Virus record (IMG/VR): IMGVR_UViG_3300009551_000002
Coordinates: 1-64,000 of that record
Source of the DNA: a virus
Lineage: Duplodnaviria > Heunggongvirae > Uroviricota > Caudoviricetes
Length of the DNA: 64,000 bases
Strand: one strand, 5' to 3'
The stretch's first letter is position 1, and every line of letters begins with the position of its first letter. The position numbers were made by a program, and so were the translations under genes. The notes under the pieces were generated by a model. It was not told where the DNA came from. It searched no databases and was given only the letters and a program-made list of their open reading frames with translations. Below, one piece after another: positions 2,217 to 28,603 of the stretch.

Positions 2217-2936
2217 ATGTGGGTGGACCGCGCCATTCCTTTTTCTAATGCTCCAACTTGCGTGGGATTGGCAGAGAGTTTAATCTTTCTCATGCAATAT
2301 GTGAGCGTAATGCCAGACATTAGTCTGGAAGATATCAACCGAGCACTGTCACGCGCCATACCTGCCCGCCCCAATCATCGCTCGAAGGGCACGCACCTCA
2401 CAGATATCTTGCAGAGGATGAATCGTGAGAGTGGCCGCATGAAAGAGAAGATCGTATTTGGCAGGAACACTTACGCTCCACTGGACGAAGAGGATATGCC
2501 GATGTGCATGGCGCTTGGCATGATCTTTGAGACCGGCCTGATGCAACTCATGCCGTGGCTACAGAGAATCGGCGAGATCTCGAAGGACGGTATCGCGATG
2601 TCGCCGGATGCGGGTACGTATAACTGTCGCAGGCACCTGCTGTCGCCTGACAAAGATGTGCCGGTCGTGCTCGACGAGATCAAGCTGACGTGGAAGTCAG
2701 TGAACCGTGGGCTCGAAGAGCACTTCAATTATTTGCAGCAAACGAAGTCGTACTGTTATGGGTTGAATACAGTGTATTGCCGATTACACATCATGCACGT
2801 CAATGGGAGCTATAAGTTCGGCGACGATCCGCTCGGCGGCCCGCAGTACGTGCAGCACCACATCATGTACACCCCTTTTGAAATTCAGATGAATTGGGAA
2901 GAAGTTCAACGAAGGAAGAAGGAATACGGACTGTGA
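2217..2936 (+). CDS. PD-(D/E)XK exonuclease (YqaJ/lambda-exo/Cas4-like)
   Basis: Motif ...VVLDEIKLTWK... (D-x-E-I-K core of PD-(D/E)XK nucleases); sits beside a RecA-like ATPase; start ambiguous (2217, 2295 or 2313). Confidence 0.5.
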   Translation: MWVDRAIPFSNAPTCVGLAESLIFLMQYVSVMPDISLEDINRALSRAIPARPNHRSKGTHLTDILQRMNRESGRMKEKIVFGRNTYAPLDEEDMPMCMALGMIFETGLMQLMPWLQRIGEISKDGIAMSPDAGTYNCRRHLLSPDKDVPVVLDEIKLTWKSVNRGLEEHFNYLQQTKSYCYGLNTVYCRLHIMHVNGSYKFGDDPLGGPQYVQHHIMYTPFEIQMNWEEVQRRKKEYGL

Positions 2937-2989
2937 CTCAGCCAGCTAAACCCACAATCAAAGCTCAAGAAGGACCGACGCAATTCGAG

Positions 2990-3838
2990 ATGCTGACCGG
3001 AGAGATAGAGCCGCGCATGACAATGCTCGTTCATGGTCGGACGAAACACGGTAAGACCGAGTTAGCGTTGAAGTCACCGGGCGACGCCGGAGTCATCTCA
3101 CTCGACTCCAACTGCAAGGCAATCGCGGCGAAGTACAAGTTGGCGAATCCCAAGAAGCAAATCTTCTACAAGGAGTTCCTGCGGTCGCCGCTAAGCCAGA
3201 TCGACGACATCAACGAATTGAAAAAGCACTGGCAGAACGTGCGTAAGGCGTACTACGACATGCTGGACATCAAGACTGTCCGCACGGTTATCTGTGACAC
3301 CCACACGCAAATGTGGGAGGACTGCAAGCTGGCCTACGTGGGTAAAGAGAAGCCGGACGCGTCGAGTGAAGTCGATGCACAGGGCAAACCGACCGGCAAG
3401 CAGTTCGGCACGCAGAAGACCATTCCGCGTGACCTGGGTGAAGCCAAGCGCGACATGCGTGAGATGATCAACGCGTGTGAAGCTGCCGGGAAGAATCTGG
3501 TGCTGCTCTGCAAGGCCGACGATGAGTGGAAGGACGACCCCCAAGGGAAAGGATTCAAGACCGGTAAGGTGCGCCGCATCGGCATGCCCGGCATCGAATA
3601 TCTGAGTCAGTGTGAGGTCGAAGTGTTCCGGCACGAGACGCTCGGCACGTTCGTCGCGCGCATGCTGAGTTCGACGGCCAACGCCGATATCCGTGGACGG
3701 CAAGGATCAATGGTGTTCGTGCCGGGCAAAGGTGACATCTGGCAGCCGTCGCAGGACGAGTTTATCGATAGCGACATCACGTTTGGGATGATCGCGATCA
3801 GTGTGTATCCGAGTACCGAAATCGAGGCGTGGGAGTAA
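2990..3838 (+). CDS. RecA-like P-loop ATPase (Sak4-like recombination protein)
   Basis: Walker A-like HGRTKHGKTE near the N-terminus; size and context (next to exonuclease) match phage Sak4/RecA-like proteins; in-frame ATG at 2990 chosen to avoid overlap. Confidence 0.45.
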   Translation: MLTGEIEPRMTMLVHGRTKHGKTELALKSPGDAGVISLDSNCKAIAAKYKLANPKKQIFYKEFLRSPLSQIDDINELKKHWQNVRKAYYDMLDIKTVRTVICDTHTQMWEDCKLAYVGKEKPDASSEVDAQGKPTGKQFGTQKTIPRDLGEAKRDMREMINACEAAGKNLVLLCKADDEWKDDPQGKGFKTGKVRRIGMPGIEYLSQCEVEVFRHETLGTFVARMLSSTANADIRGRQGSMVFVPGKGDIWQPSQDEFIDSDITFGMIAISVYPSTEIEAWE

Positions 3839-4116
3839 TTCACGTGACAGGCGACGACATTGCTGCGCAGTTAAAGCAAGAGCAAGGCTACCTAGTGTAT
3901 GGAGCCTACACTAAGAAGGAAATCGGCGAGATCATTCCTCCGGAGAGGCACGGTGATCACTCGATTCCAGTTCGGATCGTGAAGGTGTCCACCGTAGCCG
4001 CGCTGGTCAAACAGACCAATCGCGTGCATGAAATCGCGCCTGAATTACAGAAGAGAAAAATCCAGTCCTCGGACGTGCGCTGGCCTTTTATTTACGAAGT
4101 AGAAGCGATCGATTAA
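3829..4116 (+). CDS. hypothetical protein
   Basis: 95-aa ORF overlapping the end of the upstream gene; no motif. Confidence 0.3.
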   Translation: MGVIHVTGDDIAAQLKQEQGYLVYGAYTKKEIGEIIPPERHGDHSIPVRIVKVSTVAALVKQTNRVHEIAPELQKRKIQSSDVRWPFIYEVEAID

Positions 4117-4129
4117 AACAGGAGAGACT

Positions 4130-4471
4130 ATGGAAGATAACAACGACAATGACCAGAAAATGAACGAAGTCATTGATGGGCTCAGGAATGGAGCCGAGTC
4201 CGAAGAAGCCGTAGCACAGGTTGCTGCTGCTGCCGCCGATGCGCCTGCACCGCAGGGACTCCCCGCGCCGCGATGCCCATTTTGTCAGGTGGCACTGTTT
4301 GCCGTGGACAAGTCTGGCGTGACCACTTACAACATTCAGATGGGCATGGAGAGGCTCCGGATCTTCACGTGCGCCAATTGCGATTGCGTACTGCCGATCC
4401 AGGTCATGGTGATCGATACGCCGCTAATCGCTGCGCCGAGCGCGCAAGGCGGCAGACTCGTTCGTCAATAG
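4130..4471 (+). CDS. hypothetical Zn-ribbon protein
   Basis: CPFC...CANC cysteine pairs; ends in TAG and is in frame with the downstream ERCC4 gene (9-nt gap). Confidence 0.45.
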   Translation: MEDNNDNDQKMNEVIDGLRNGAESEEAVAQVAAAAADAPAPQGLPAPRCPFCQVALFAVDKSGVTTYNIQMGMERLRIFTCANCDCVLPIQVMVIDTPLIAAPSAQGGRLVRQ

Positions 4472-4480: not shown

Positions 4481-5329
4481 ATGAGCATTACCATCGATCC
4501 ACGCAGAGGGTCGGGAGAATTCGCGCGTCTATTCAGCGGATTCTCCATCCCCATTTACTTAGAAACGCTCGATAGCGCGGACTATGCGTTCAGTGGTAAC
4601 GGGCCGTCTGGTGATGTGTCCGTAGGTGTTGAGCGTAAGGCGCTTGCCGACTTCCTCACGTGCATGAACGACGAGAGGTTTACTGGATTTCAACTAGAGA
4701 AGTTGCTCAAGGATTACCACTACACTTTTGTAGTTATTGAGGGAGTGTACAGACCGACGATCGACGGCTTTATTGAAGTGTGCCAGCCGGTGAGGGATCG
4801 GTTCCGTAATGAGAGCGACAAGGTTATGACATGGCGTCCATTGTATGAGGGCTCGAAGGGGCGACGTACGCTCTACAGTCAACTCGAAGGCCACATCAAT
4901 ACGCTGAGACTCAAGGCAGGCACGCCGAACGCTGGGTTCCTGGTCATGAATACGACGGACGCGTTGCATACGACGTGGGTAGTGGCTAATCTGTACCGGT
5001 GGTTTAGTAAGCCATGGGCTGAACACCAGAGCCACATTGGATTCTACGATCCGGCGTCATTGTTCAGAGGGAAGTCATCGTTCGAGATGAGAGTTGCGAT
5101 GCAGTTGGATAAGGTGGGCGTGGATCGCGCCAACTCGATCGTGAAGGCATTTCCTGGCATGGACGGTATGGTATCGCCACTGGAACAGATGATGACTGCG
5201 ACTGAGAAGGACTGGGAGAGCGTGGATGGCATCGGTCCTACGGGGGCGAAGAACATCTACCGACAGTTACACGGACGGAACGAAGTAAAGGAACCGAAGA
5301 AGATTAGGAAGAAGAAAGGAGATTCGTAA
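4481..5329 (+). CDS. ERCC4-type (XPF/Mus81/Hef-like) nuclease with C-terminal helix-hairpin-helix
   Basis: ERCC4 signature ...SADYAFSG...VGVERKALADFLTC...; C-terminal GIGPTGAKNIYRQL HhH motif. Confidence 0.6.
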   Translation: MSITIDPRRGSGEFARLFSGFSIPIYLETLDSADYAFSGNGPSGDVSVGVERKALADFLTCMNDERFTGFQLEKLLKDYHYTFVVIEGVYRPTIDGFIEVCQPVRDRFRNESDKVMTWRPLYEGSKGRRTLYSQLEGHINTLRLKAGTPNAGFLVMNTTDALHTTWVVANLYRWFSKPWAEHQSHIGFYDPASLFRGKSSFEMRVAMQLDKVGVDRANSIVKAFPGMDGMVSPLEQMMTATEKDWESVDGIGPTGAKNIYRQLHGRNEVKEPKKIRKKKGDS

Positions 5330-5664
5330 TGGCGTGGTTTTATGCAACTTTGATCGACGACGGCTCGGCTGTTCTCATAAATATGGAGCACATCTGTTCC
5401 ATCAACGTGAATGTGAACGATATGGGCACGATGGATGAGAGCCGTGAATTCTTTTTAGACGTGCGTACCGTAGACGGGTGCTGCTATAAACTCGAAGATC
5501 CAGAGGCTTATGGGCACGCTCTCATGGAAATGCTGGCAGCTAGGTCGTCGTCGAAAGACAGTACCAGTGAGATCGGGATGATGACAAACTTCATCCGCGA
5601 ACGATATAAGACCTTCCGACAAGAATTACAACGAAAAGAATCGCAGCCTAAACAAGAAGAGTAG
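5329..5664 (+). CDS. hypothetical protein
   Basis: 111-aa ORF, tightly packed operon. Confidence 0.4.
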   Translation: MAWFYATLIDDGSAVLINMEHICSINVNVNDMGTMDESREFFLDVRTVDGCCYKLEDPEAYGHALMEMLAARSSSKDSTSEIGMMTNFIRERYKTFRQELQRKESQPKQEE

Positions 5665-5666
5665 CG

Positions 5667-6227
5667 ATGGCCGTAGAGCTTCCAGGTCGATGTGTCGGCG
5701 AGATCGGGTGCAAGGCACCGATCCTACGGATGAATCGTTGCCTGAAGCATCTACGTGAGTTCGAGCAGGAGACGCGCGATAGGCTTGGATTACCTCCAGT
5801 GAAGGAACAGCCGGTAGCGCCTCCTCCTATTGTTGCTCCGAGTACTCCAGCTAAGCGTACTGAACGTGCCGATATGGTCGAGCATCGCAAACTAGCAGCG
5901 GCTCCATTGCCTGCGAAGTATCTGACGCTCGAAGAAGTGGAGGCGCATCGCCGCACTGCTCCGCGTTGGATTTGGCTCTGGGATCTGCTCGAAAAGATGC
6001 CGGAAGACAAATGCGCATTGGAAGTCAATTTGCCGGATGGCATGGACATCACGCGATTTGCTAACATGATCCGTACAGCATTAAGTATGCAAAAGCGATT
6101 AAATGATGATCGCTGGAGCGTGCGGAAGACGATGAGCGCAGAAAGTGTGATCATCACCAAGGTCGGGACGTGGAAGGAATACGACGCTGAGCAGGCCGCG
6201 TTAAAAGAAGGGAAGAAGAATGGCTAA
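5667..6227 (+). CDS. hypothetical protein with N-terminal C-x2-C...CLKH zinc-ribbon-like motif
   Basis: CVGEIGC...RCLKHLRE; shares the motif with ORF 6817-7086. Confidence 0.45.
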   Translation: MAVELPGRCVGEIGCKAPILRMNRCLKHLREFEQETRDRLGLPPVKEQPVAPPPIVAPSTPAKRTERADMVEHRKLAAAPLPAKYLTLEEVEAHRRTAPRWIWLWDLLEKMPEDKCALEVNLPDGMDITRFANMIRTALSMQKRLNDDRWSVRKTMSAESVIITKVGTWKEYDAEQAALKEGKKNG

Positions 6228-6564
6228 GACGGAACTCGAACTCCTCAAGTATGACTGTGTCGATAGTCAGCACATGCTCTTCAAGCCTGGGTGCTTTGGG
6301 AATATTGCTGGACGGCGAGTCATGCTTTGCTTGGACTATGACATCGACAAGATAGTCACTACTGGCGTTCTCTTCGAGCGTGATAACGCTATTTGGGTAG
6401 ATGTCGGTTACCTCGCAGAAGAATTCAAGGGATGGGAAGCCTGCGTTTCCTTTACGGTTAAATATCCTTTGGAGGAGTCAGCTAACGGTGCTTTCGTCGA
6501 GATATCGAAGGCTCAGATCCATCATGTGCTCGGCTTCGTCAGGCCCGGCTTGAAGATCCATTGA
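6220..6564 (+). CDS. hypothetical protein
   Basis: 114-aa ORF, ATGA overlap with upstream gene. Confidence 0.45.
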   Translation: MAKTELELLKYDCVDSQHMLFKPGCFGNIAGRRVMLCLDYDIDKIVTTGVLFERDNAIWVDVGYLAEEFKGWEACVSFTVKYPLEESANGAFVEISKAQIHHVLGFVRPGLKIH

Positions 6565-6565
6565 T

Positions 6566-6820
6566 ATGCGTAAGTACCCGCCAGCGTCCGAATACCTACC
6601 CGCGCCTGAGGCTGTGCGTATCGCACGTGAGCGCACGCAGGACATCCTCAAGCTGTGGACGTTGAGCATCGACGTCTACAACTCAGGCGGTATAGCTGAC
6701 TTCGGCGTGCTGGTGCAGTCAGCGTACCTGCAAGGCGTTGAGGACGCTGGAGTCGCGCTAGGGATGCGCGGGCTGTTGGTGATGCCGCGCGTAGAAGGAA
6801 GCTACGAGGAAGAACGATGA
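6566..6820 (+). CDS. hypothetical protein
   Basis: 84-aa ORF. Confidence 0.35.
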   Translation: MRKYPPASEYLPAPEAVRIARERTQDILKLWTLSIDVYNSGGIADFGVLVQSAYLQGVEDAGVALGMRGLLVMPRVEGSYEEER

Positions 6821-7086
6821 GTCATCACTGTCACGCAATCGACTGCACCGTCGAAATCCCACCTAGGCTTCATATGTGCCTGAAACATTGGCGGATGGTG
6901 CCGAAGCTCGTGCAGGATCTCATCTGGGCACACTACCGGCCAGGGCAGGAGATCGACAAGAAGCCGACTCCCGAGTATCTGTACACCGCGTTCGTCTCGA
7001 TATCGTGCGTGGCTATGGCAGAAGGCAAGGATCTACCGGTGATGGATATAGCATTGATCAGAATAGTGGAGAATATGAAACCGTGA
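6817..7086 (+). CDS. hypothetical protein with C-x2-C...CLKH motif
   Basis: CHAIDCTVEIPPRLHMCLKHWRM; paralogous motif to ORF 5667. Confidence 0.4.
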   Translation: MSHHCHAIDCTVEIPPRLHMCLKHWRMVPKLVQDLIWAHYRPGQEIDKKPTPEYLYTAFVSISCVAMAEGKDLPVMDIALIRIVENMKP

Positions 7087-7112
7087 GCAACGCCACAATC
7101 ATTCGCCGTAAC

Positions 7113-7313
7113 ATGAGCTACGTGTTCGATAACTTCCGCAATAACGAAGATAACGTGCTCCTACACGGGATCGATATTGAGTTTATCGACGGTGCGTGGT
7201 GTCCGGTCGTCCCACACGGTAACGCGCTCACTGCTCTCGCTGTCGCGCGTCCAGACTGTTTTGAGTTTCGCTGGATAGCGCTCACTAAGAAGTGGCTCCC
7301 GATATATGAATGA
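7113..7313 (+). CDS. hypothetical small protein
   Basis: Internal ATG of track ORF 6876-7313; the upstream part of that ORF overlaps 6817-7086 in another frame. Confidence 0.3.
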   Translation: MSYVFDNFRNNEDNVLLHGIDIEFIDGAWCPVVPHGNALTALAVARPDCFEFRWIALTKKWLPIYE

Positions 7314-8838
7314 TCGCTGCGCTACCTGTACAGGTCGGTTTCATGTCATCCGTGGTGATGGCCCCGAACGATGCCGTGCCGCGATGTTCGGTCAGAATCC
7401 AGGCAAGCAGGAAGAGGCATCGGCAGAGCGCGGCGAGTACGGCAGAGTCTTCATCGGAGACGCGGGCAGGGAACTCAATGAACACTATCTCGCACTGGCC
7501 GGGCTCGTCCGATCTGAAGACGTGTTCGTATCGAATGTGATGAAGTGTCACACGGAGAACGACCGTAAGCCGTCGCCTCGCGAGATCGCCACGTGTGCTG
7601 CTCATCACATGCCTGGAGAGTTAATCGAGCGTGATCCCGACATCGTCGTCCTCATGGGATCGCCCGCGTGCTCGATCGTGCCGGAGATATGGCTAGAGGC
7701 GCATCATGGCTATCCACTGAAGGTGAATCTGTTTGGCACGCAGCGCTGGGTGGTGCCGATGTACCATCCGGCTGCTGGACTACACGACCCGTCGATGATG
7801 ACGGAACTCATGCAGGACTTCGAGCGGCTGAGAAAGATCGTCGGTGGCGACTACTCGGTGCCAATCGATGAGTATCCCAATCCAGAGTATCGCGATCTGA
7901 CCGGCGACCATGCAGCCATCGAAGCGATCCTGCGTAAAGGACTAGACGGCCTGCGGATACTGGCGCGTGATACCGAGTACTTGCAACTGAAGAAGTCGCC
8001 TATCAAGACTCCGTGGTGCTCGACGTTCACTATCGACCCAGGCACCGGGTACATGATTCGAGCTACAGATCGCGCTGGCTTACAGATCCTCGCGCGCTAC
8101 ATGCCGTACTATTACGGCAACTTGCACAATGCGCTGGCTGACCTGGACGTTGAGCAGGTCATGGGGCTGCCGGAAGCTGAGTTCGACGACACCATGCAGC
8201 TTGCCGCGCACCAGCAGGACCTTCCGCAGAAGCTCAAGGCGCTGGCATGGCGGCTCGCTGGGATGACGATGAAGGATTACGAAGACGTCGTCATGCCGTA
8301 TAGTCGGACGGCAGTCCTGGAGTGGTTGGAGGCTGCCTACGACGTTGCTGTGCTGACGCCGACGACCAAGACCAAATACACGAAGAAGAAACGCAAAGTG
8401 CCGAAGACAGAAAAGGCCATGCAGAAATTGTGGGCTGAAATCGGGGCCTTCAATCCGGAAGAAGGACCGGATGGTTACTTCTATTTCAAGATTGCGGAAC
8501 AGGAAGTGTGCGACAGTGATCTCACGAAGAAGATCCTCCACATTCACAAACACACGGCCAAGCCGGTCCCTGCGGATGCGGACAAACCTTACAATTGCTG
8601 GGAGGCTTGGCAGACTCAAGTCGTCGAGAAGCTCGGGCCGGAGATCGAGAACGAAGTCGTGAAGAGGATCGGGCCGATGCCGCAAGCGTCGATCCAGGAA
8701 GTGTTCACACGGAACCCTGAAGAGGCGATACGGTACGCGTGTAGAGACTCGGATTCGACCAGAAGGATCTTCCCTGTGTTGAAGGAGCGGTCGCATAAGT
8801 ATGACGGCAGGGTGATGCTAGGAGATATCGATCGATGA
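7306..8838 (+). CDS. Family A DNA polymerase, N-terminal fragment (UDG family-4-like domain + 3'-5' exonuclease domain + start of polymerase domain)
   Basis: UDG4-like motifs (GQNPG...FIGDAGREL...MKCHT...YHPAAGLH); Exo I (ARDTEY) and Exo III (YYYGNLHNALADLD); C-terminal RYACRDSDSTRRIF matches the PolA YAAxDA region; ends in a stop codon. Confidence 0.7.
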   Translation: MNDRCATCTGRFHVIRGDGPERCRAAMFGQNPGKQEEASAERGEYGRVFIGDAGRELNEHYLALAGLVRSEDVFVSNVMKCHTENDRKPSPREIATCAAHHMPGELIERDPDIVVLMGSPACSIVPEIWLEAHHGYPLKVNLFGTQRWVVPMYHPAAGLHDPSMMTELMQDFERLRKIVGGDYSVPIDEYPNPEYRDLTGDHAAIEAILRKGLDGLRILARDTEYLQLKKSPIKTPWCSTFTIDPGTGYMIRATDRAGLQILARYMPYYYGNLHNALADLDVEQVMGLPEAEFDDTMQLAAHQQDLPQKLKALAWRLAGMTMKDYEDVVMPYSRTAVLEWLEAAYDVAVLTPTTKTKYTKKKRKVPKTEKAMQKLWAEIGAFNPEEGPDGYFYFKIAEQEVCDSDLTKKILHIHKHTAKPVPADADKPYNCWEAWQTQVVEKLGPEIENEVVKRIGPMPQASIQEVFTRNPEEAIRYACRDSDSTRRIFPVLKERSHKYDGRVMLGDIDR

Positions 8839-8858
8839 TCGTGATATAGTCATAAATT

Positions 8859-9344
8859 ATGATGAATCCGGAACATCGAAAGAAAGCGATAGGGCTCACA
8901 CGTAAAACTGCGGACGAGCTAATTCGCAAGATATGCGCGACTGCCGAGAGGATCAATGCGGACAAGAACATGAGCCGTGTCATCGTTAAGCTCACTGTGT
9001 TCGGTAGCTATCTCTCCGATAAAGAAAAGCTAGGCGATTTGGATATTGCCGCCGAGTATGACTTTCGCTATCCTGACGCGAATGGGAATTATTCGGACAA
9101 GCAACGAGCATTGGACGATAAGATCCGAGAGAGCGATCCGCGTGATTACCCGGTGACGATCGTAGCGCGCGTGTGTTACCCGGAATTGCTGGTCTTGAAA
9201 ACACTAAAGGGGGGATCGAGAGCTATCAGTCTACACTCGCAGTCTGAATTAGACGCCATGATAGAGGAATTCCCGGAGACCAAACACAAAGTAATTTGGA
9301 CGCGTAATGAAGTTCCCGAACTCAGAACCGATAGCCCGAAGTGA
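8859..9344 (+). CDS. minimal nucleotidyltransferase (MNT / pol-beta superfamily)
   Basis: GS...D-h-D signature (TVFGSYLSDKEKLGDLDIAAEYDF); 161 aa; first gene of the insertion in the polymerase gene. Confidence 0.5.
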   Translation: MMNPEHRKKAIGLTRKTADELIRKICATAERINADKNMSRVIVKLTVFGSYLSDKEKLGDLDIAAEYDFRYPDANGNYSDKQRALDDKIRESDPRDYPVTIVARVCYPELLVLKTLKGGSRAISLHSQSELDAMIEEFPETKHKVIWTRNEVPELRTDSPK

Positions 9345-10041
9345 CGACGAGATCTCGTCTCATCGTGCGGCATTAAAGCTGACGGCGAGCGGTGCCCGTA
9401 GCTCACAAAAGATGGACCTGTTGTTATGGATGCGCGCACATCACCTATACAGTGCAGAATCGGCGATGACGATGCGAGAGATCGCCGCAGCGCGTGGAAT
9501 GTCGGACTTCTCGTCGATACACAAGCGCTTACCGGATCTACTAGAGGACGGTTATGTTACTAAATGTGGTATCCGTACGTGTCGCGTTACCGGTAATGAC
9601 GCACTCACTTGGGCGATTGGAGACATTGTGCCCGTGATCTCTATTTTCAAAGGCCAGTACTCGTTCCTATCTAACTTCTTCATCGAGCCTGACGGCACGC
9701 ACGTTGAAGGTGAGTACCAAGCACGCAAGGTATTGCCTATCGAACATGGCGTGGAGAATTTGAATCCGTCAAGGGCCAAGGCGTGGGGCAAGAAGATGCG
9801 TGGTAAAGAACGACCGGATTGGCACGAGGTCAATCTGAAGATCATGGAGGATCTGGTGATGGCGAAGTTCGTTGATCACGAGAACCTACGTGAGTTGCTG
9901 CTCGCGACTGGTGACGCAGAGATCGTCGAATCGAATACGTGGCACGATATTTTTTGGGGGCGCTGTGTCTGCCCCCAACATCATGGAGAAGGCCGCAACG
10001 AGCTTGGAATAATCCTTATGAAGGTACGTGCGTGGCTATGA
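9307..10041 (+). CDS. winged-HTH - NADAR (YbiA/DUF1768) domain fusion protein
   Basis: C-terminal NADAR motifs (FKGQYSFLSNFF...EYQARK...NLKIMEDLVMAKF...LLLATGDAEIVESNTWHDIFWG); N-terminal MarR/ArsR-like wHTH; start uncertain. Confidence 0.5.
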   Translation: MKFPNSEPIARSDDEISSHRAALKLTASGARSSQKMDLLLWMRAHHLYSAESAMTMREIAAARGMSDFSSIHKRLPDLLEDGYVTKCGIRTCRVTGNDALTWAIGDIVPVISIFKGQYSFLSNFFIEPDGTHVEGEYQARKVLPIEHGVENLNPSRAKAWGKKMRGKERPDWHEVNLKIMEDLVMAKFVDHENLRELLLATGDAEIVESNTWHDIFWGRCVCPQHHGEGRNELGIILMKVRAWL

Positions 10042-10499
10042 TCGTATACGTCATTAGGAATCAAGTTAACGGGAAAGTGTATGTGGGACAAACCACCCAG
10101 AGCCTAGAATCCAGATGGAGACATCATTGTTGGACGTCGACTCTTGTAGCCGCGAAGATGCCGATCTCCAGAGCGATAGCCAAGTACGGAAAGGAAAACT
10201 TCACTATCGCAGTTATACGAAGATGCCGCTCCCAACGATCTCTGGATTCTTCTGAGTTGAGTTTTGCTAAGAAGCTCCGCGCGTTCGTGCCGCATGGGTA
10301 TAATCTCAGGGCTGGTAACGGTCCTGGAAGTCTCAGCCCAAAAACTAAAGCAAAAATCAGTGCCGCGAATAAAGGGCGCAAACCGACTGCACAGGCAAGG
10401 CACAATATGTCATTGGGCCACTTAGGTCGCAGGAGGTCTCCGATCACGGACATGAAGCTAAGTGAGCGATACAAGGGCAGACCTGTTAGTCGACTCTGA
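10038..10499 (+). CDS. GIY-YIG homing endonuclease (catalytic part; frameshifted)
   Basis: MIVYVIRNQVNGKVYVGQTTQSLESRWRHH = GIY-YIG motif; NUMOD3-like GRKPT repeats; the reading frame continues in +1 after the stop. Confidence 0.6.
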   Translation: MIVYVIRNQVNGKVYVGQTTQSLESRWRHHCWTSTLVAAKMPISRAIAKYGKENFTIAVIRRCRSQRSLDSSELSFAKKLRAFVPHGYNLRAGNGPGSLSPKTKAKISAANKGRKPTAQARHNMSLGHLGRRRSPITDMKLSERYKGRPVSRL

Positions 10500-10500
10500 C

Positions 10501-10688
10501 CAATTGCAGCAGCGAAACGTCTCTCTAAGTTATGGCAAGTCGTATCGCCCTACGGTGAAGCTCACATCATTCGCGGACTAGCCAAGTTTTGTCGAGAGCA
10601 TGGACTTCTCCCCTCACAAATGTGTCTAGTAGCTCAAGGTGCTCGTAATCATCATCACGGCTGGCGCGTAAAGGAAATTCATGCGTAG
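10501..10688 (+). pseudogene. NUMOD1-like DNA-binding tail of the GIY-YIG endonuclease in the +1 frame
   Basis: Translates to ...SPYGEAHIIRGLAKFCREHGLLPSQMCLVAQGARNHHHGWRVKEIHA, typical of homing-endonuclease C-terminal NUMOD1; separated from the catalytic part by a +1 frameshift. Confidence 0.45.
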
Positions 10689-10709
10689 ATCGTTTCGGGG
10701 AGTTCGATA

Positions 10710-11267
10710 ATGGATCAAATCATTGCGTTAATCCGTCAGTTCATCAACATCTTCAAGATCTGGATGATCGTTATGCCATGGGAGCAAGCAGTACGCGTGC
10801 GCCTTGGTAAGCACACAGAGACACTTGAAGCTGGATGTCATCTCAAGTTGCCATTCGTCGATTCCTATTACGTGCAGAGCACACGTAAGCGCAACTCAGT
10901 GACCGGACGTCAGACTATCCTGATGAAGGATGGGATTCGCAACGCAATCGTCGCCACCATCGTGGGATATACGATCAGCGACGTACTCAAACTATACAGT
11001 ACTTTACATCACGCCGAGGACACGATCCGGAATATGGTCATGGCGGAAGTCGTCACTGTCATCTGCGAGCTTGATGATCTGTCCCCTTTGAGCATCGGAG
11101 AACGCGTTACTAAGAATATCAACTTTGAGCAGTACGGTCTGAGCAACGTCGAGGTTTGCGTGGCCGAGCTTTCGATCGCACGCACGTATAGGATCATGGG
11201 CGATTACGCACAGATGTTCCAGAACGGTACGGCGCTGCATACTGAGAGCGAGAATCCGAAGACATGA
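10710..11267 (+). CDS. SPFH/band-7 (prohibitin/stomatin-like) domain protein
   Basis: N-terminal TM helix then an SPFH-like core (PWEQAVRVRLGKHTETLEAGCHLKLPFVDSYY...). Confidence 0.45.
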   Translation: MDQIIALIRQFINIFKIWMIVMPWEQAVRVRLGKHTETLEAGCHLKLPFVDSYYVQSTRKRNSVTGRQTILMKDGIRNAIVATIVGYTISDVLKLYSTLHHAEDTIRNMVMAEVVTVICELDDLSPLSIGERVTKNINFEQYGLSNVEVCVAELSIARTYRIMGDYAQMFQNGTALHTESENPKT

Positions 11268-11503
11268 GGGCCAGTCCATTGCTCGCTAGATATCGTGCGC
11301 TGAAGAAACAGGAAGCGAAGCTCGCTGATAGCTGGGTGAAGTTCCACGCGGCTGCCAAAGCTGGTGGTTGTCAGCACGAGGTCGTAAACGATCATAAGAT
11401 CCATAACGACAACGGCTACGGTCGTTGGTGGACGACGTTCCAGAGGGTATGCGCCTTCTGCGAAGAGGTACTGGAAAGTCGGACTGAAAACGGCTGCTTA
11501 TGA
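11264..11503 (+). CDS. hypothetical protein
   Basis: 79-aa ORF with ATGA overlap. Confidence 0.35.
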   Translation: MRASPLLARYRALKKQEAKLADSWVKFHAAAKAGGCQHEVVNDHKIHNDNGYGRWWTTFQRVCAFCEEVLESRTENGCL

Positions 11504-11673
11504 GTGAAGACGACGCGCGCTACGTGATGAACATTGCCAAGGCGACTCTGTTCGGTGTATATAGTATGCTCTTGCAATTAAATTGTGCAGATAATCGCAT
11601 CGGTGCTTTGACGACCGAGAAGAACAACGCACTGTCGTTGATCGAGAAACAGTTTAACGAGCGCCCGCGATGA
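11500..11673 (+). CDS. hypothetical small protein
   Basis: 57-aa ORF not in the track; overlaps the start of the HNH gene. Confidence 0.25.
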   Translation: MSEDDARYVMNIAKATLFGVYSMLLQLNCADNRIGALTTEKNNALSLIEKQFNERPR

Positions 11674-12287
11674 TGGCTCCTTCCCGCCCGGCCATCTACA
11701 TGCCGGGCCAACCAGACCTGCTCCGTCGAATCAAAGTAGACGGTGTCTTCCTAACAGCCATCGTGATCGCGCGTATATGGTCACGGATAGAAATACGCGG
11801 CGCTGATGAGTGTTGGCCTTGGATAGCCGCAGGGTCACCAGGATATGGGGTGATTAGAGTCGGCAATAAGTTGCTAGTAGTTTCTCGGATCATGGCGCAT
11901 GCAGCTTATGGCAAACCTTCAAAGAAGAAACCATACGCGTGTCATACGTGTGACAACCCCCCATGCTGCAATCCGAAGCATTTGTTCTGGGGGTCGATGA
12001 AAGATAATTTGGACGACGCCAGCGCGAAGGGTAGGTGTGCTGTACAACGTCACCCAGAAATCATTCGCGGAGAACGCAACGGCAGCGCCAAATTAACTGA
12101 AGCACAAGTCGCTGACATATACACGAGCGGTGAGAGTAAGCGGCAAGCCGCTGATCGATTCAGAGTCAGCGTGAGCCTTGTAAAAGCAATCCGGCAAGGA
12201 AAGAATTGGCGACACGTCACAGTTTCACTGCGTCGCGGAAAAGTGGAGTGTCGAAATACATGGCCGTTCCGAAACGCCCACAGATAA
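11670..12287 (+). CDS. HNH homing endonuclease (HNH_3/AP2-like)
   Basis: CWPW...GYGVIRVGNKLLVVSRIMAHAAYG...CHTCDNPPCCNPKHLFWGSMKDN; 3' end overlaps the start of the polymerase C-fragment. Confidence 0.6.
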   Translation: MMAPSRPAIYMPGQPDLLRRIKVDGVFLTAIVIARIWSRIEIRGADECWPWIAAGSPGYGVIRVGNKLLVVSRIMAHAAYGKPSKKKPYACHTCDNPPCCNPKHLFWGSMKDNLDDASAKGRCAVQRHPEIIRGERNGSAKLTEAQVADIYTSGESKRQAADRFRVSVSLVKAIRQGKNWRHVTVSLRRGKVECRNTWPFRNAHR

Positions 12288-13621
12288 CGATGCCCGGCGA
12301 ACCGTGCCTGGAGAACGTCGCGAACATTGATCGTGGCGTCATCCCCTTCACACGCGCCTGCCAGAACAACGGCATGGTGCTCAATCGCGAGCACCTGTGG
12401 GAACTCTCTGAGTACCTCGATAAGGAAATCGCTCGACTAGGTAGAGAGATCACCGAGCATATCCCACAGTCAATGCTCGATGAGTTCACACAAGCATCAT
12501 TAGCGATCGATGATTTGAATCTCGACTCGCCTGATCAGATCGCCGCTCTCTTGTTCCGTCATCTGCGCGTTGGGCAAGGCGTCGAGTTAGAGATGACTCC
12601 TGGTGGAGACCGGATCTCCACAGGAAAGAAACAACTCGAACGGATCAAGAAGGATCACCCGGTCATCCCGCTGATCCTGCAACGGCGCGAATACACCAAA
12701 CTTCAAAACACGTATTGCGACACACTGCCGAACGAAGCCATTTACGTACCGTCGATCGATCGTTGGAAGTTCTACTACAACATCGGGCTGACGTTCACGT
12801 CGACGGGGCGCATGACAGTATCGCGCGTGCATCAGATTCCGATCCGGACAGAGCTAGGCCGCAAGATCCGACAGGCGTTCGAGCCAGAGCCGGGCATGGT
12901 GTTCATCTCCGCTGACTACGCGGGGCTAGAGCTACGCATTCTTGCACACTGCGCGCAAGAGCGGAACATGATCCGGATCTTCCGTGATCCGAAAGGCGAC
13001 ATCCATCAGGAGACAGTCGACGGGCTGAACATGCCGCCAACACTGGACGCTACGGCGCAGCGATTAGCGGCGAAGCGAGTCAACTTCGGCATCGTCTACG
13101 GGACGACGGATCTAGGGCTATGGCTGACGTTGCAATCTGACGGCGTGCCGTGTACGAGGGAACAGTGTGCTGGATTCCAGCTAGGATTCTTCGCCACCTA
13201 TCCTGACGTCGCGCCGTACATTTCAAGGATGCACTATCGCGCCCGGCGCTATGGATTCGCGTACAACATCTTCGGGAGAGTGTCGCCAGCGCCGGAGTTT
13301 CGGTCAGTACATAAGAGGATCGTCAGAGAAGGCGAACGAAGGATTCAGAACTACGTGATCCAGTCGACTGCGACGGACGTGTTCAAGATCGGCGCGGCAG
13401 AGGTCTATGACTTCTGTTTGGAAGTACAGGATGGATTGTTCGGGAAGCCGATGCGCTGCGAGCCGCTGCTGCCGTTTCACGATCAGATCCTACTACAGTG
13501 CGACAAGTCGATCGCGGTCGAGTGCGCTGAAGCGATCGGGCAAATCATGGGCAGTTGCGTACAATTGCGGATACCGTTGAAGGTGGATCATCCGATCCAG
13601 GAGGGTCACTGGAAGAAATGA
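12206..13621 (+). CDS. Family A DNA polymerase, C-terminal fragment (thumb/fingers/palm)
   Basis: Motif A ISADYAGLELRILAH, motif B RLAAKRVNFGIVYG, motif C HDQILLQ; the N-terminus aligns to the segment that follows the YAAxDA region in Klenow; true start may be 12251 or 12290. Confidence 0.75.
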   Translation: MATRHSFTASRKSGVSKYMAVPKRPQITMPGEPCLENVANIDRGVIPFTRACQNNGMVLNREHLWELSEYLDKEIARLGREITEHIPQSMLDEFTQASLAIDDLNLDSPDQIAALLFRHLRVGQGVELEMTPGGDRISTGKKQLERIKKDHPVIPLILQRREYTKLQNTYCDTLPNEAIYVPSIDRWKFYYNIGLTFTSTGRMTVSRVHQIPIRTELGRKIRQAFEPEPGMVFISADYAGLELRILAHCAQERNMIRIFRDPKGDIHQETVDGLNMPPTLDATAQRLAAKRVNFGIVYGTTDLGLWLTLQSDGVPCTREQCAGFQLGFFATYPDVAPYISRMHYRARRYGFAYNIFGRVSPAPEFRSVHKRIVREGERRIQNYVIQSTATDVFKIGAAEVYDFCLEVQDGLFGKPMRCEPLLPFHDQILLQCDKSIAVECAEAIGQIMGSCVQLRIPLKVDHPIQEGHWKK

Positions 13622-26032: not shown

Positions 26033-26477
26033 GTATATCTCGAATTCTCCTCCAGTGACGATCACCTTTCCGGCAATCTTTACATTGCCTAGCGAGTCCG
26101 TTCCAACGCGTCGAGTTTTTGTGAAACTTTTTAACAGACCTGAATCGTTTGCAATGACTGCACCACGATTTCCCAGGCGGTAGTGCGGTCCTAGCCCCAG
26201 TTAAATAATGAGGGCGATTACAACGTGCGTGGGAAAAAGCGACGTTCTCCTGATCCCAAAAAAGATCCGCTGATTTATCTTCCCAAGGGCGCTTATGTTC
26301 GACGGTGAACTGCTGGACACTCTCGATCCTAGAGCCACATCTGAAGCAGAGATCCATTTTGGCTGCTACGGCCAGTCTAAATAGAATCGCTTTCCGTAAT
26401 TGATGTAGCGCGGTTCCGTAGGACATTCCAAGTTGCTTTTTGATCTTTGCCGCTCTGTTTCTCCAATCATAGGCCAT
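26019..26477 (-). CDS. HNH homing endonuclease
   Basis: CFRCGSRIESVQQFTVEHKRPWEDKSADLFWDQENVAFSHARCNRPH; inserted in the tRNA array; 3' end overlaps tRNA-Leu(CAA) by 14 nt; start taken at the internal ATG 26477. Confidence 0.55.
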   Translation of the reverse strand: MAYDWRNRAAKIKKQLGMSYGTALHQLRKAILFRLAVAAKMDLCFRCGSRIESVQQFTVEHKRPWEDKSADLFWDQENVAFSHARCNRPHYLTGARTALPPGKSWCSHCKRFRSVKKFHKNSTRWNGLARQCKDCRKGDRHWRRIRDIRARG

Positions 26478-26525
26478 GCTTTTTATAGTAACACTGGTGG
26501 GCACCTTTAGGATGCCCACCAATTC

Positions 26526-26615
26526 TGGTGGGTGCCCTCGGATTTGAACCGAGACTGCCGCAAGGGCAAGAAGTTTTACAGACTCCCGCGCCGTAACCAT
26601 ATCCGACTGTCACCC
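26526..26615 (-). tRNA. tRNA-Tyr(GUA)
   Basis: Class II with long variable arm; anticodon loop CTGTAAA. Confidence 0.6.
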
Positions 26616-26621
26616 GTAATT

Positions 26622-26716
26622 TGGCAGAGGGCCTGGGAGTCGAACCCAGTTGCGCTCGAAGGATCTAACGCGTGTCGCATTAGCAGTGCGATGGCTTACC
26701 GTCCGCCTCGCCCTCT
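26622..26716 (-). tRNA. tRNA-Ser(GCU)
   Basis: Class II; anticodon stem TCGCA/TGCGA, loop CTGCTAA. Confidence 0.65.
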
Positions 26717-26717
26717 G

Positions 26718-26790
26718 TGGCACGAGTGGAAGGAATCGAACCCTCAATCGCAGTTTTGGAGGCTGCTACCGTCACCGTCCGGTCACTCGT
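26718..26790 (-). tRNA. tRNA-Trp(CCA)
   Basis: Anticodon loop CTCCAAA; T-loop TTCGATT. Confidence 0.55.
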
Positions 26791-26799
26791 GTATAAATA

Positions 26800-26887
26800 T
26801 GGCGGAAGGGAGGAGAGTCGAACTCCTATGCGCCGAAGCTGCGGCAGTTTTCGAGACTGCTGGGTTACCATTTACCCATCCCTTCCG
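26800..26887 (-). tRNA. tRNA-Ser(CGA)
   Basis: Class II; anticodon stem GCAGT/ACTGC, loop CTCGAAA. Confidence 0.65.
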
Positions 26888-26901
26888 TGATGTCAAAGAT
26901 C

Positions 26902-26984
26902 TGGTAGCCCCGGAGAGAATTGAACTCTCACGCCCGAAGGCACTGGTTTCTAAGACCAGCGTGTATGCATTCCACCACGGGGCC
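26902..26984 (-). tRNA. tRNA-Leu(UAG)
   Basis: Class II; anticodon stem CTGGT/ACCAG, loop CTTAGAA. Confidence 0.65.
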
Positions 26985-26985
26985 G

Positions 26986-27061
26986 TGGACTGCTCGGTGA
27001 GAATCGAACTCACGATTGGCGGGGTTGCAATCCGCTGCCTTACCGTCTTGGCTACGAGCAG
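26986..27061 (-). tRNA. tRNA-Cys(GCA)
   Basis: Anticodon loop TTGCAAC; discriminator U73 as expected for Cys. Confidence 0.6.
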
Positions 27062-27195
27062 AGAAAATTGTTAGAGAGATGAATATGAACAGAGTCGCAA
27101 ACCGGTACTAGACCAGTAGCGATAGCGCAGGCAGTATAAAGATAGTGCGCGGTTCATGAGATCAGTATACATAAGTGAAGATTGTTTTGCAATAA

Positions 27196-27228
27196 AAAAA
27201 GCCCCGCTCTAAGTGGCGGGGCTTCGTT
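27196..27228. terminator. bidirectional rho-independent terminator
   Basis: AAAAAAA-GCCCCGC-tctaagt-GCGGGGC-TTCGTTTT: GC hairpin flanked by A- and T-runs. Confidence 0.7.
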
Positions 27229-27429
27229 TTACATTGCCTTCTTACCGGGCTTCTGACGCTTCTTCCCAGTCTTGAACCGATTGCGCCCTTTCAGGCGATG
27301 GGCCTTGCCGTCTTTCTCATATCGGCAATGCAGCGTCCGGTTCTTTTCAAAGTTAGCTCTGGGCTCGCCCTGCTGCCGCCGAAGTATATCCAGGCGACGA
27401 CGGCGAGCACCTTTGCTGGCATTGACCAT
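27229..27429 (-). CDS. small highly basic protein (ribosomal-protein-like; bL32-like family tentative)
   Basis: 66 aa, strongly K/R-rich; RBS AAGGAG 6 nt upstream of ATG; followed directly by the terminator; sits at the head of the tRNA array. Confidence 0.4.
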   Translation of the reverse strand: MVNASKGARRRRLDILRRQQGEPRANFEKNRTLHCRYEKDGKAHRLKGRNRFKTGKKRQKPGKKAM

Positions 27430-27502
27430 GACTCGCTCCTTTCTAGGTAGCTGTCATGGTGTACTCCTTATGAATTGGCATAGCCTTACAGGATAGCAGA
27501 AT

Positions 27503-27578
27503 TGGCAGAGGAGGAAGGACTCGAACCTTCGATTGCTGCGTTCAGAGCGCAGTGCAGTTGCCGCTGTGCCACTCCCCT
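27503..27578 (-). tRNA. tRNA-Gln(CUG)
   Basis: Anticodon stem CTGCG/CGCAG, loop CTCTGAA. Confidence 0.6.
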
Positions 27579-27586
27579 ATAAAAAT

Positions 27587-27662
27587 TGGTTGCGGGCAGG
27601 GGAGTCGAACCCCTCCGTCTGCGTCTTCAGCGCAGCACAATCACCACGATTGTTTGCCCGCT
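27587..27662 (-). tRNA. tRNA-Phe(GAA)
   Basis: Anticodon stem CTGCG/CGCAG, loop CTGAAGA; A1-A72 mismatch. Confidence 0.55.
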
Positions 27663-27728
27663 ACATCGAGCCGCCGTCGTCGCTCAGTGTCAGTGGTGCG
27701 ACGATGTCTAGTTGCGACGACTCGAACT

Positions 27729-27805
27729 TGGCGAGGATAGTGGGACTCGAACCCACGATGACCACTTTGAGGGAGTGGTGGCTTAGCCAGCTTGCCCATA
27801 TCCTC
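27729..27805 (-). tRNA. tRNA-Glu(CUC) (C33 in anticodon loop)
   Basis: Anticodon stem CCACT/AGTGG, loop CCCTCAA with C33 rather than U33. Confidence 0.45.
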
Positions 27806-27810
27806 GAACT

Positions 27811-27885
27811 TGGCGCGTCTGATCGGAGTTGAACCGACATCGACCTGAGCGACAGTCAGGTGCTCTGCCATTAAGCTACAGACGC
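27811..27885 (-). tRNA. tRNA-Asp(GUC)
   Basis: Anticodon stem CCTGA/TCAGG, loop CTGTCGC. Confidence 0.65.
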
Positions 27886-27890
27886 GAACT

Positions 27891-27966
27891 TGGTACTCCC
27901 CAGGTGACTCGAACACCCATTCCTGGTTTCGTAGACCAGTGCCTTGTCCAGTTAGACGAAGGGAGC
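27891..27966 (-). tRNA. tRNA-Arg(ACG)
   Basis: Anticodon stem CTGGT/ACCAG, loop CTACGAA. Confidence 0.65.
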
Positions 27967-27967
27967 A

Positions 27968-28041
27968 TGGTAGCGTCGAGGAGAATTGAACTCCTATTTA
28001 CTGAGTGAAAATCAGCCGTCCTGCCGTTAGACGACGACGCC
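27968..28041 (-). tRNA. tRNA-Glu(UUC)
   Basis: Anticodon loop TTTTCAC. Confidence 0.6.
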
Positions 28042-28051
28042 TCAAAAACAT

Positions 28052-28126
28052 TGGTGGGACCGGAGAGAATTGAACTCTCGCCTATCAACTTAAAAGGTTG
28101 CTGCCTCGCCATTCGGCCACGGTCCC
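28052..28126 (-). tRNA. tRNA-Lys(UUU)
   Basis: Anticodon loop CTTTTAA. Confidence 0.55.
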
Positions 28127-28132
28127 TAAACT

Positions 28133-28208
28133 TGGTGGGTCGCGTGAGGATCGAACTCACCGCGTCCTGATTAAGAGTCAGGTCCATCACCATTGATGGT
28201 AGCGACCC
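28133..28208 (-). tRNA. tRNA-Lys(CUU)
   Basis: Anticodon stem CCTGA/TCAGG, loop CTCTTAA. Confidence 0.65.
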
Positions 28209-28215
28209 GAAAACT

Positions 28216-28290
28216 TGGTCCCTCTGCTTGGACTCGAACCAAGACCCTTCGGCTTATGAGGCCGCCGCGCCACCTTTGCGCCACAGAGGA
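28216..28290 (-). tRNA. tRNA-Met(CAU) (elongator Met or Ile2-type; not resolved)
   Basis: Anticodon loop CTCATAA; D-arm GCGC-AAAGGTG-GCGC. Confidence 0.55.
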
Positions 28291-28291
28291 A

Positions 28292-28366
28292 TGGAAGGGA
28301 GACAGGGACTCGAACCCTGGTAAGCAACCTCAAAAGATGCCGTCCTGGCCGCTGAACGATCTCCCT
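28292..28366 (-). tRNA. tRNA-Gln(UUG)
   Basis: Anticodon loop TTTTGAG; A1-U72. Confidence 0.55.
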
Positions 28367-28372
28367 AAGACT

Positions 28373-28448
28373 TGGAACTCCCGGAGCGAGTCGAACGCTC
28401 GTCTACTCTTTAGAAGAGAGTGGCCCTGTTCCGTTGGACGACGGGAGT
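28373..28448 (-). tRNA. tRNA-Arg(UCU)
   Basis: Anticodon stem ACTCT/AGAGT, loop CTTCTAA. Confidence 0.65.
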
Positions 28449-28450
28449 AC

Positions 28451-28524: not shown

Positions 28525-28528
28525 GAAA

Positions 28529-28602: not shown

Positions 28603-28603
28603 G

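Follow-up and report, generated by a model that had tools for sequence, protein, structure and literature searches.

How does a phage come to encode one DNA polymerase in two genes, with a string of other genes between them? The question is raised by a 64-kb stretch of sequence from an uncultured phage (positions 1 to 64,000 of IMG/VR record IMGVR_UViG_3300009551_000002; hereafter, the window), in which a family A polymerase is encoded by two open reading frames (ORFs), at 7306-8838 and 12260-13621, with an insert of ~3.4 kb between them. A first-pass annotation of this DNA had proposed that a single 3.4-kb insertion, carrying two homing endonucleases and three cargo genes, had split a polymerase gene. 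We compared the region ~7306-13621 (+ strand) with related loci (L001-L021) and related proteins (P-numbers), and the analysis supports a different answer, which we hold with good confidence: a native two-subunit polymerase that probably dates from a single old fission, whose gap was colonized later and whose polymerase gene carries an HNH endonuclease gene at its 5' end. In other words, the insert would have settled in a pre-existing break and would not have broken the polymerase. Homing endonuclease and cargo genes do lie between the halves, with matches to NADAR, GIY-YIG, Band_7 and PHROG 59, but they form part of a set of seven ORFs rather than the five first described, the additional ones being at 11264-11503 and 11500-11673.

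The two polymerase ORFs match positions 514-830 and then 847-1223 of the PHROG 17 'DNA polymerase' profile, and are therefore consecutive pieces of one polymerase. The upstream ORF encodes 510 amino acids and ends in TGA at 8836-8838. Its first ~180 residues form a domain like that of family-4 uracil-DNA glycosylases (UDG), with four Cys retained; the Pfam UDG model matches residues 17-168 at 57.8 bits (cut-off 24.3), and NCBIfam TIGR00758 scores 83 bits, under its cut-off of 125. Motif B (HPAAG) and the Cys residues are present, and motif A (window 7390-7405) reads GQNPG, not GEAPG; with this motif A, the glycosylase may be inactive or altered. GQNPG is found in the window's subclade and in L001, and the canonical GEAPG in L017, L019, L021 and MW202455. 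Next come the exonuclease motifs ExoI (DTE, residues 222-224), ExoII (NALAD) and ExoIII (YACRD, residue 477), which align with those of fused, single-chain PolAs.

The downstream gene starts at ATG 12260, with GGAG upstream at 12246, in agreement with the starts in all relatives. The first-pass annotation was right that this ORF resumes with the next polymerase segment; the start that it had used, TTG 12206, is replaced. The product scores 236 bits against Pfam DNA_pol_A (cut-off 34.3), aligns with Taq and Klenow (E 1e-49 to 1e-45) from just past the exo-pol boundary to the C-terminus, and covers positions 487-880 of the NCBIfam PolI profile. Motif A reads DYAGLELR and motif B KRVNFGIVYG. Motif C (window 13460-13500) is HDQ as opposed to the usual HDE, and is invariant in the seven split-clade sequences aligned; the fused L001 has HDS at this position.

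The break lies ~30 residues past the ExoIII motif and ~25 residues ahead of the first polymerase-domain helix, which by alignment is the exo-pol domain boundary; the first-pass annotation had put the stop where the polymerase thumb should begin. Alignment to unsplit PolAs had been suggested as a way of mapping insertion points. It placed the break at one column of the exo-pol linker, shared by the window, L007 and L010 at polymerase identities as low as 39%, whereas the fused homologues (L001, 912 amino acids; PMBT14 gp45, 834; MW202455, 804) run continuously across it; what it mapped is thus a break that is old and common to the split clade.

Relatives of this phage had to be sought among uncultured sequences. 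Megablast comparison of the region with 50,697 phage records gave no match, and tblastn against phage records found only relatives of at most 33% identity, so there was no cultured relative for comparison. A scan of IMG/VR with the polymerase half as a single protein returned nothing, and an alignment-based scan was needed instead. In the nearest of the loci where little separates the two genes, L006 (74% polymerase identity), the UDG-exonuclease gene at 1327-2871 is followed after 55 nucleotides by the polymerase gene at 2927-4282. The genes of L007 (60%) at 8469-10004 and 10001-11335 share an ATGA overlap, and those of L008 and L009 (55%) are separated by a 1-nucleotide spacer (stop 9999, start 10001). 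Other relatives have filled gaps: L012 (92%) holds NADAR and SPFH genes and three small ORFs between the halves, without GIY-YIG; L005 (86%) only NADAR, GIY-YIG and SPFH genes; and L010 and L011 (39%) three small ORFs. L004 has an ORF for a putative metallopeptidase, and not one for a UDG-exonuclease, upstream of its polymerase gene, and the contig ends 2.7 kb upstream. The same gene order occurs in more than 10 independent assemblies, which rules out the assembly artefact that the first-pass annotation had named as a possible refutation.

Larger surveys agree. When the polymerase half was searched against 5.8 billion proteins, the homologues returned were almost exclusively polymerase-only proteins of ~412-505 amino acids, at identities from 92% to ~32%; a few homologues of ~750 amino acids are also polymerase-only and are enlarged by inteins. 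HMMER searching with the N-terminal half gave 343 cluster representatives at E<=1e-30, and 140 of the best 150 are stand-alone proteins of fewer than 600 amino acids. Among 80 IMG/VR loci surveyed, 12 are split (5 with adjacent genes, 2 with a gap of ~0.5 kb and 5 with a gap of 1.8-2.4 kb), and about two dozen contain fused UDG-exo-pol ORFs. In a neighbor-joining tree of polymerase domains, all split forms fall together in a single clade among the fused ones, and within it loci with adjacent genes and loci with gaps are intermingled. Since adjacent relatives, a common break column, stand-alone homologues and a single clade in the tree all point the same way, the fission most likely happened once, long ago, and genes entered and left the gap repeatedly afterwards.

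These data bear directly on the idea that an uninterrupted polymerase gene was recently broken, in this lineage, by one large mobile insertion with its cargo. The idea has points in its favor, as the halves match consecutive parts of PHROG 17, the DNA between them holds two endonuclease genes, and distant relatives have fused UDG-exo-pol genes. It is nonetheless very improbable: the same stop and start lie 0-55 nucleotides apart in relatives with 55-74% polymerase identity, the split column is common down to 39% identity, and the content of the insert varies piecewise among the window, L005, L012 and L014.

Side observations on this polymerase family concern further rearrangements. In L020 (5130-9425), the enzyme is in three genes: UDG (5130-5741), an HNH gene (6224-6700), exonuclease (6691-7422), then two small ORFs and the polymerase (7983-9425). 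Six relatives (P0005, P0007, P0013, P0050, P0051 and P0241) carry inteins at three different sites, one within polymerase motif B (NFGI/C...N/CYG) and another upstream of motif A; in P0241, which is 87% identical to the N-terminal half, an intein with a LAGLIDADG-like block precedes the UDG Fe-S Cys (NVMK/C...HN/CHTEN).

Could the halves still be joined into a single chain by an intron, a (split) intein, frameshifting or bypass? The GIY-YIG protein of the insert falls in the NCBIfam family 'group I intron endonuclease', inteins are common in the polymerase family, as just described, and fractured genes with split inteins and an endonuclease are known (PMC2677866). The inteins of the relatives, however, sit away from the exo-pol junction. 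A covariance-model search, which the first-pass annotation had called for, found no match to any Rfam family over 8500-12700 on either strand at E<=1, and no Pfam intein domain occurs in either half, in line with the earlier statement that the flanks lack intein motifs. Relative to fused homologues, split forms have ~19 extra residues at the end of the N-terminal half and ~10 at the polymerase start, ~29 in total; the two halves of known split inteins total well over 100 residues, so a split intein is unlikely. The relatives leave no room for an intron because their genes overlap, abut or lie 55 nucleotides apart, and the varying frames and spacings argue against programmed frameshifting. Every relative's polymerase gene also has its own aligned start Met. 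We give rejoining a close to negligible chance. It had been argued that the enzyme would have to work as two polypeptides unless spliced, and that argument stands, as no intron or intein that would restore a single chain was found.

It is also extremely improbable that the halves are decaying remnants in a phage replicated by another polymerase. The HDQ of motif C and the GQNPG of the UDG domain might be taken as signs of decay, and endonucleases are known to damage genes. Yet both halves are under purifying selection and have no frameshifts or internal stops: the ratio of nonsynonymous to synonymous change (dN/dS) is ~0.09 against L005 (0.095 for subunit 1 and 0.086 for subunit 2), and 0.066 for subunit 2 against L012. 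The invariance of HDQ in the split clade makes it a fixed trait, the exonuclease motifs and polymerase motifs A and B are conserved, and tblastn within the window detects no second family A polymerase. The locus has what is expected of a two-gene exo/pol PolA, namely a stop and a start of its own at the linker, conservation of both in relatives, and selection on both genes.

Conservation is strong at the junction itself. Over the last 72 codons of subunit 1, the protein is 100% identical to that of L005 despite a synonymous difference of 49% (pS 0.49), and dN/dS is 0.008. Recent co-conversion with L005 was considered as a cause and rejected, as such a pS points to selection and not to recent exchange. 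The C-terminal tail, RSHKYDGRVMLGDIDR, is confined to split forms, and its conservation fits a docking role toward the polymerase subunit.

The genes between the two subunits, together with the subunits themselves, are as follows.

7306-8838, + strand: polymerase subunit 1 gene, UDG-like and 3'-5' exonuclease (Pfam UDG, PHROG 17, motifs).
8859-9344, + strand: 161-residue ORF, possibly a Pol-beta-fold (MNT-like) nucleotidyltransferase (weak Pfam match, motif, Foldseek).
9307-10041, + strand: NADAR-domain protein with a variable N-terminal module (Pfam NADAR, 84.6 bits).
10038-10499, + strand: GIY-YIG homing endonuclease gene, ended early by TGA (Pfam 39.4 bits, TIGR01453 70.6 bits).
10500-10688, + strand: GIY-YIG C-terminal domain, 62 codons beyond the TGA (in frame, alignment with L005).
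10710-11267, + strand: SPFH/Band_7 protein, 185 residues (Pfam Band_7, 47.4 bits).
11264-11503, + strand: 79-residue ORF with no assigned function (conserved in L012 and L014).
11500-11673, + strand: 57-residue ORF with no assigned function (ORF call).
11670-11720, + strand: putative displaced polymerase 5' end (MMAPSRPAIYMPGQPDL), the first 17 codons of the HNH ORF (blastn against L006).
11670-12287, + strand: HNH (His-Me finger) homing endonuclease gene, 205 residues (PHROG 59, E 1.5e-25).
12260-13621, + strand: polymerase subunit 2 gene, family A polymerase domain, 453 residues (Pfam DNA_pol_A, 236 bits).

Comparison with the relatives marks the insert as a mosaic of at least four pieces gained or lost separately, which does not fit the single 3.4-kb insertion first proposed; nor does the existence of relatives with the same two genes and nothing between them. 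By DNA and protein comparison, the NADAR domain and the SPFH gene are common to the window, L005 and L012. Separate JGI contigs carry pieces of the insert at 99-100% protein identity (P0121, P0391), which also speaks against an assembly artefact.

The first ORF of the insert had been called an MNT nucleotidyltransferase, and is possibly a Pol-beta-fold enzyme of this kind. Pfam NTP_transf_2 gives E=0.052 and 14.4 bits, below the cut-off of 21, and a GS...DxD motif is invariant in four homologues. The AlphaFold2 model (pLDDT 71) has as its best Foldseek match in the PDB the MNT antitoxin 7ae2_B (E=0.033, TM 0.35); the top matches are all Pol-beta-fold proteins, but at E>=0.03 and TM<=0.35. No tblastn match to this ORF was found in L001-L013.

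The next gene had been described as a fusion of a winged helix-turn-helix with NADAR. The NADAR part is well matched at residues 110-244, where Pfam exceeds its cut-off of 35.1 and the NCBIfam NADAR models stay below theirs, and it is 66% identical to L005 and 79% to L012. The N-terminal 110 residues are unrelated between the window and L005; a weak match to LexA_DNA_bind (E=0.015) suggests that this module may be a winged helix. Phage orphan antitoxins neutralize DarT1 (PMC11825919, PMC11543638), and by analogy it is plausible that NADAR serves here as a counter-defence gene that reverses DNA ADP-ribosylation (anti-DarT1).

The start codon of the GIY-YIG gene, ATG 10038, overlaps the NADAR stop as ATGA. 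Its protein consists of a catalytic domain and NUMOD3, and it exceeds the cut-offs of both the Pfam model (22.6) and TIGR01453 (56.05). The first-pass call of an endonuclease therefore holds for the domain, with two corrections, the start and a premature in-frame TGA at 10497-10499, where the L005 orthologue has GGA (Gly). This stop removes a C-terminal domain of 62 codons that remain in frame (to 10688) and are ~80% identical to L005; because they keep a dN/dS of 0.12, the stop is either recent or read through. In the window and L005, the gene has NADAR on one side and SPFH on the other; it is absent from L012, where the NADAR stop abuts the SPFH start. Of the attributes of a homing endonuclease gene, the domain and a presence/absence polymorphism are thus found, and the ORF is interrupted.

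The SPFH protein, which the first-pass annotation had correctly placed between the halves, is ~79% identical to its counterparts in L005 and L012, occurs also in L014, and has a dN/dS of 0.11-0.15. Another SPFH/Band_7 gene lies at 17749-18531 (260 residues, 64.5 bits), downstream of the polymerase gap by a few kb, and has no similarity to the first by tblastn at E<=0.01. The 79-residue ORF is found in L012 and L014 and is absent from L005, and the 57-residue ORF has no homologue in the related loci.

The last gene of the insert, the HNH gene, overlaps the polymerase start by 28 nucleotides at its 3' end, as had been noted from the start. Besides PHROG 59, it matches Pfam HNH_3 at 17.5 bits, under the cut-off of 24.8, and the C/H/N residues that are invariant in 713 homologues are conserved in the window protein. 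The window and L014 have the gene, L012 has lost it by deletion and L005 lacks it. By these sequence features, it qualifies as a free-standing homing endonuclease.

Its 5' end resembles a polymerase start. The first 51 nucleotides of the HNH ORF, MMAPSRPAIYMPGQPDL, are 80% identical to the polymerase start of L006, MMAPRPAIYMPGEPNL (L006 2927-2974; blastn E 7.7e-7); the start of the window's own polymerase gene at 12260, MAVPKRPQITMPGEPCL, is homologous to them. The first ~17 polymerase codons (12260-12310) would be the replacement copy of this duplicated 5' end. The closest HNH homologue, P0122 of L014, is in the same position and begins MTAPSRPAILMPGQP, and more distant homologues have no polymerase-start stub. 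A search for direct and inverted repeats over 8600-12600 gave short, chance-like two-copy families and no terminal repeats around the insert; it missed the diverged 51-nucleotide duplication, which blastn against L006 later revealed.

Parallel scars in L006 and L005 support such duplication of gene ends as a pattern. In L006 (4283-5082), an unrelated HNH gene comes directly after the polymerase stop, and beyond it lie the final 40 codons of the polymerase gene in displaced form, with 90% identity to the corresponding end in the window; the end in use in L006 resembles that of L004. In L005, a displaced NADAR end (LMRVREWIR and a stop) is kept between GIY-YIG and SPFH. Scars of this type are therefore seen three times, from HNH at the 5' end of the polymerase gene (window and L014), from HNH at its 3' end (L006) and from GIY-YIG at the 3' end of the NADAR gene (L005). 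A limited literature search found no description of the capture of a polymerase start by an HNH gene or of recurring gene-end duplications. It is a tentative suggestion that homing endonucleases enter essential genes near their ends and leave a second copy of the end, so that the host gene stays whole and the endonuclease inherits its expression signals. If this were a general rule, the split-polymerase junction would be an endonuclease-driven shuttle, spreading counter-defence cargo (NADAR) between phages by co-conversion.

Loss can be followed at the same site. L012 equals L014 minus 776 nucleotides (L014 1119-1894 against L012 1572/1573), with flanks 99.7-100% identical and an AGG microhomology at the junction; what is lost is the stub with the greater part of the HNH gene, and the ORF upstream is now joined to the remaining HNH tail. 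The two contigs come from different sequencing runs with neighboring accession numbers.

Might an HNH gene also have made the ancient split, by insertion at the domain boundary, and then been lost wherever the two genes abut? This would be compatible with a native two-subunit enzyme, and we regard it as possible but on the unlikely side. In L020, an HNH gene whose product is 34% identical still separates a stand-alone UDG gene from a stand-alone exonuclease gene in a three-piece enzyme. HNH genes of the same family lie immediately upstream of the polymerase gene in the window, in L014 and in the distant L019 (44% identical), L012 demonstrates loss by clean deletion, and endonuclease insertion giving a functional genes-in-pieces enzyme has been published (Friedrich 2007, as cited in PMC2988022). 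However, endonuclease remnants are missing from the adjacent forms, simple mutations to a stop and a start in the linker are just as possible, and the gp43 case of T4-related phages indicates that a gene already in two pieces is open to endonuclease invasion (PMC2988022).

The sequence of events that we propose for the two-subunit polymerase is as follows. Subunit 1 would comprise the UDG-like domain and the proofreading exonuclease, and subunit 2 the polymerase domain. Fission in the exo-pol linker would have occurred once, in the ancestor of a large clade of uncultured phages, within a wider family that is fused (the UDG-PolAs). The two products presumably reassemble non-covalently, probably aided by the short conserved junction tails that are confined to split forms. 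The junction between two co-transcribed essential genes would then have become a hotspot of gene accumulation, with ~2.8 kb (the MNT-like, NADAR, GIY-YIG and SPFH genes and two small ORFs) placed in the old spacer. The HNH gene would have entered the polymerase gene itself, ~17 codons in, and taken the original start codon for its own translation. It may have arrived with the 5' end of a donor polymerase gene, one junction being formed by homologous recombination inside the polymerase gene and the other by an illegitimate in-frame join ~17 codons into the recipient gene. Judging by the duplication, the polymerase would now start from the second, diverged 5' copy that overlaps the HNH 3' end. 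A cycle of endonuclease gain, decay and loss would account for the states observed: the HNH gene is seemingly intact here and deleted in L012, and, for GIY-YIG, L012 lacks the gene and the copy here has a nonsense codon.

Several points weigh against this account. Association of the subunits is deduced from the conserved junction tails (dN/dS 0.008) and from published analogues, and ordinary catalytic competence is assumed for an enzyme whose motif C is HDQ throughout the clade. Pfam DNA_pol_A_exo1 does not match subunit 1, so that its exonuclease assignment draws on motifs, PHROG 17 and homology to the separate exonuclease piece of L020, which the Pfam model does match (E 4.7e-9). The neighbor-joining tree carries no bootstrap or other support values. 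Promoter and terminator scans gave nothing above chance as set by shuffled sequence, and co-transcription is assumed from gene packing. Finally, the stub is only ~51 nucleotides long, and the choice of which copy is original follows its similarity to L006.

Neither exo/pol fission in PolAs nor endonuclease islands beside polymerase genes are new, as both are already published. In T7-like cyanophages (the S-SBP1 group), the exonuclease and polymerase are likewise split at the domain linker, and an AlphaFold complex of the two superposes on the unsplit polymerase, with the new termini modelled as solvent-exposed and the complex preserved (Czernecki et al. 2023, PMC10201439). That group belongs to a T7-like PolA subfamily without UDG, its fission is described as recent and its two genes are neighbors, whereas here a UDG-like domain sits on the N-terminal subunit, the fission is old and widespread, and the gap holds endonuclease and cargo genes.

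LUZ24-like Pseudomonas phages, which are cultured and viable, also have a PolA split at the exo-pol boundary, annotated as 'DNA polymerase part I' (exonuclease) and 'part II' (PolA), with ~2.1 kb and roughly ten small ORFs between them according to the gene table of PMC3890496. They differ in having no UDG domain, and none of the intervening ORFs examined in that table is annotated as an endonuclease. Together with the cyanophage fission, this gap, so far as the table describes it, weakens the earlier view that the arrangement is unusual. OM43 phages also have split polymerases, with a small inserted ORF (PMC10580990).

The UDG-PolAs (N4-like cluster 17, SPO1 and others) share the domain order family-4 UDG, exonuclease, polymerase (PMC10201439), but they are single chains of 800-930 residues, and the window's clade has its polymerase domain on a separate polypeptide. 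The PolA genes of SPO1, SP82 and Bastille contain group I introns encoding the HNH endonucleases I-HmuI and I-BasI, as cited in PMC10580990 and PMC2988022. Going by those citations, these too are HNH endonucleases that target phage UDG-PolA genes; they lie inside self-splicing introns and leave a single-chain protein, whereas here no intron is detected and the gene is in pieces.

Among T4-related phages, genes in pieces include nrdA/mobE of Aeh1 and the gp43 genes 43A/43B of phages 25 and 44RR, and the split gp43 subunits co-purify and are active (PMC2988022). As here, an essential replication enzyme is encoded by two genes with an endonuclease gene between them, and the same review raises the possibility that a seg endonuclease entered a gp43 gene that had been split beforehand. 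The T4-related cases involve a family B polymerase or a ribonucleotide reductase and one endonuclease each, without cargo; in the present family A case there are two endonucleases alongside five further ORFs, and one endonuclease is joined to a duplicated gene start. Homing endonuclease genes cluster in islands beside DNA polymerase genes, and these islands are unstable in content among relatives and mark recombination boundaries (Barth et al. 2023, PMC10448857); a term search of that paper turned up no mention of duplicated gene ends or of a split polymerase junction as a landing site. Against this background, the window stands as a separate fission event inside the UDG-PolA group, one whose gap holds unusually many genes.

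Current understanding is not overturned by these results. They add an abundant uncultured clade, with hundreds of clusters at 50% identity, to the few known family A polymerases with separate exonuclease and polymerase subunits, which should be useful for studying how proofreading and synthesis are coupled across subunits and the part played by the UDG-like domain. In addition, the locus provides a natural series of endonuclease gain, decay and loss in which duplicated gene ends are the scars, and the position of a likely anti-DarT (NADAR) gene within an endonuclease-rich hotspot bears on how phage accessory genes spread.

Some further features were recorded beyond the region. An adenylosuccinate-synthetase-like gene (PF00709), possibly PurZ-like, lies in the replication module of two relatives (L007 1-236, L008 14534-15757); tblastn found no counterpart in the 64-kb window. 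The link to Z-genomes and DpoZ that it suggested was set aside, as DpoZ models score far below PolI models and the gene is not in the window.

The window carries an array of ~30 tRNA genes at 24880-29501 (- strand), among them one with a CUA anticodon at 25021-25096 (an amber suppressor, called 'Pyl' by ARAGORN), and two odd calls with four-base anticodons at 19428-19505 (+) and 24880-24953 (-). Stop-codon recoding by the CUA tRNA was considered and set aside, since the stops of the N-terminal polymerase half and of GIY-YIG are TGA, not TAG, and reading TAG as sense lengthens no genes selectively. The stops of 31 long ORFs are TAG in 1, TAA in 15 and TGA in 15.

Positions 29500-64000 contain very few long ORFs, with the exceptions of a UvrD-like helicase (42113-44020, -) and a 507-residue ORF with no assigned function (51107-52630, -), and no structural genes were recognized among the ORFs scanned there. 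Elsewhere, the phage may carry sulfation genes, to judge from a glycosyltransferase-sulfotransferase fusion at 20259-22040 (Sulfotransfer_4, 127 bits) and an APS kinase at 23029-23583 (206 bits).

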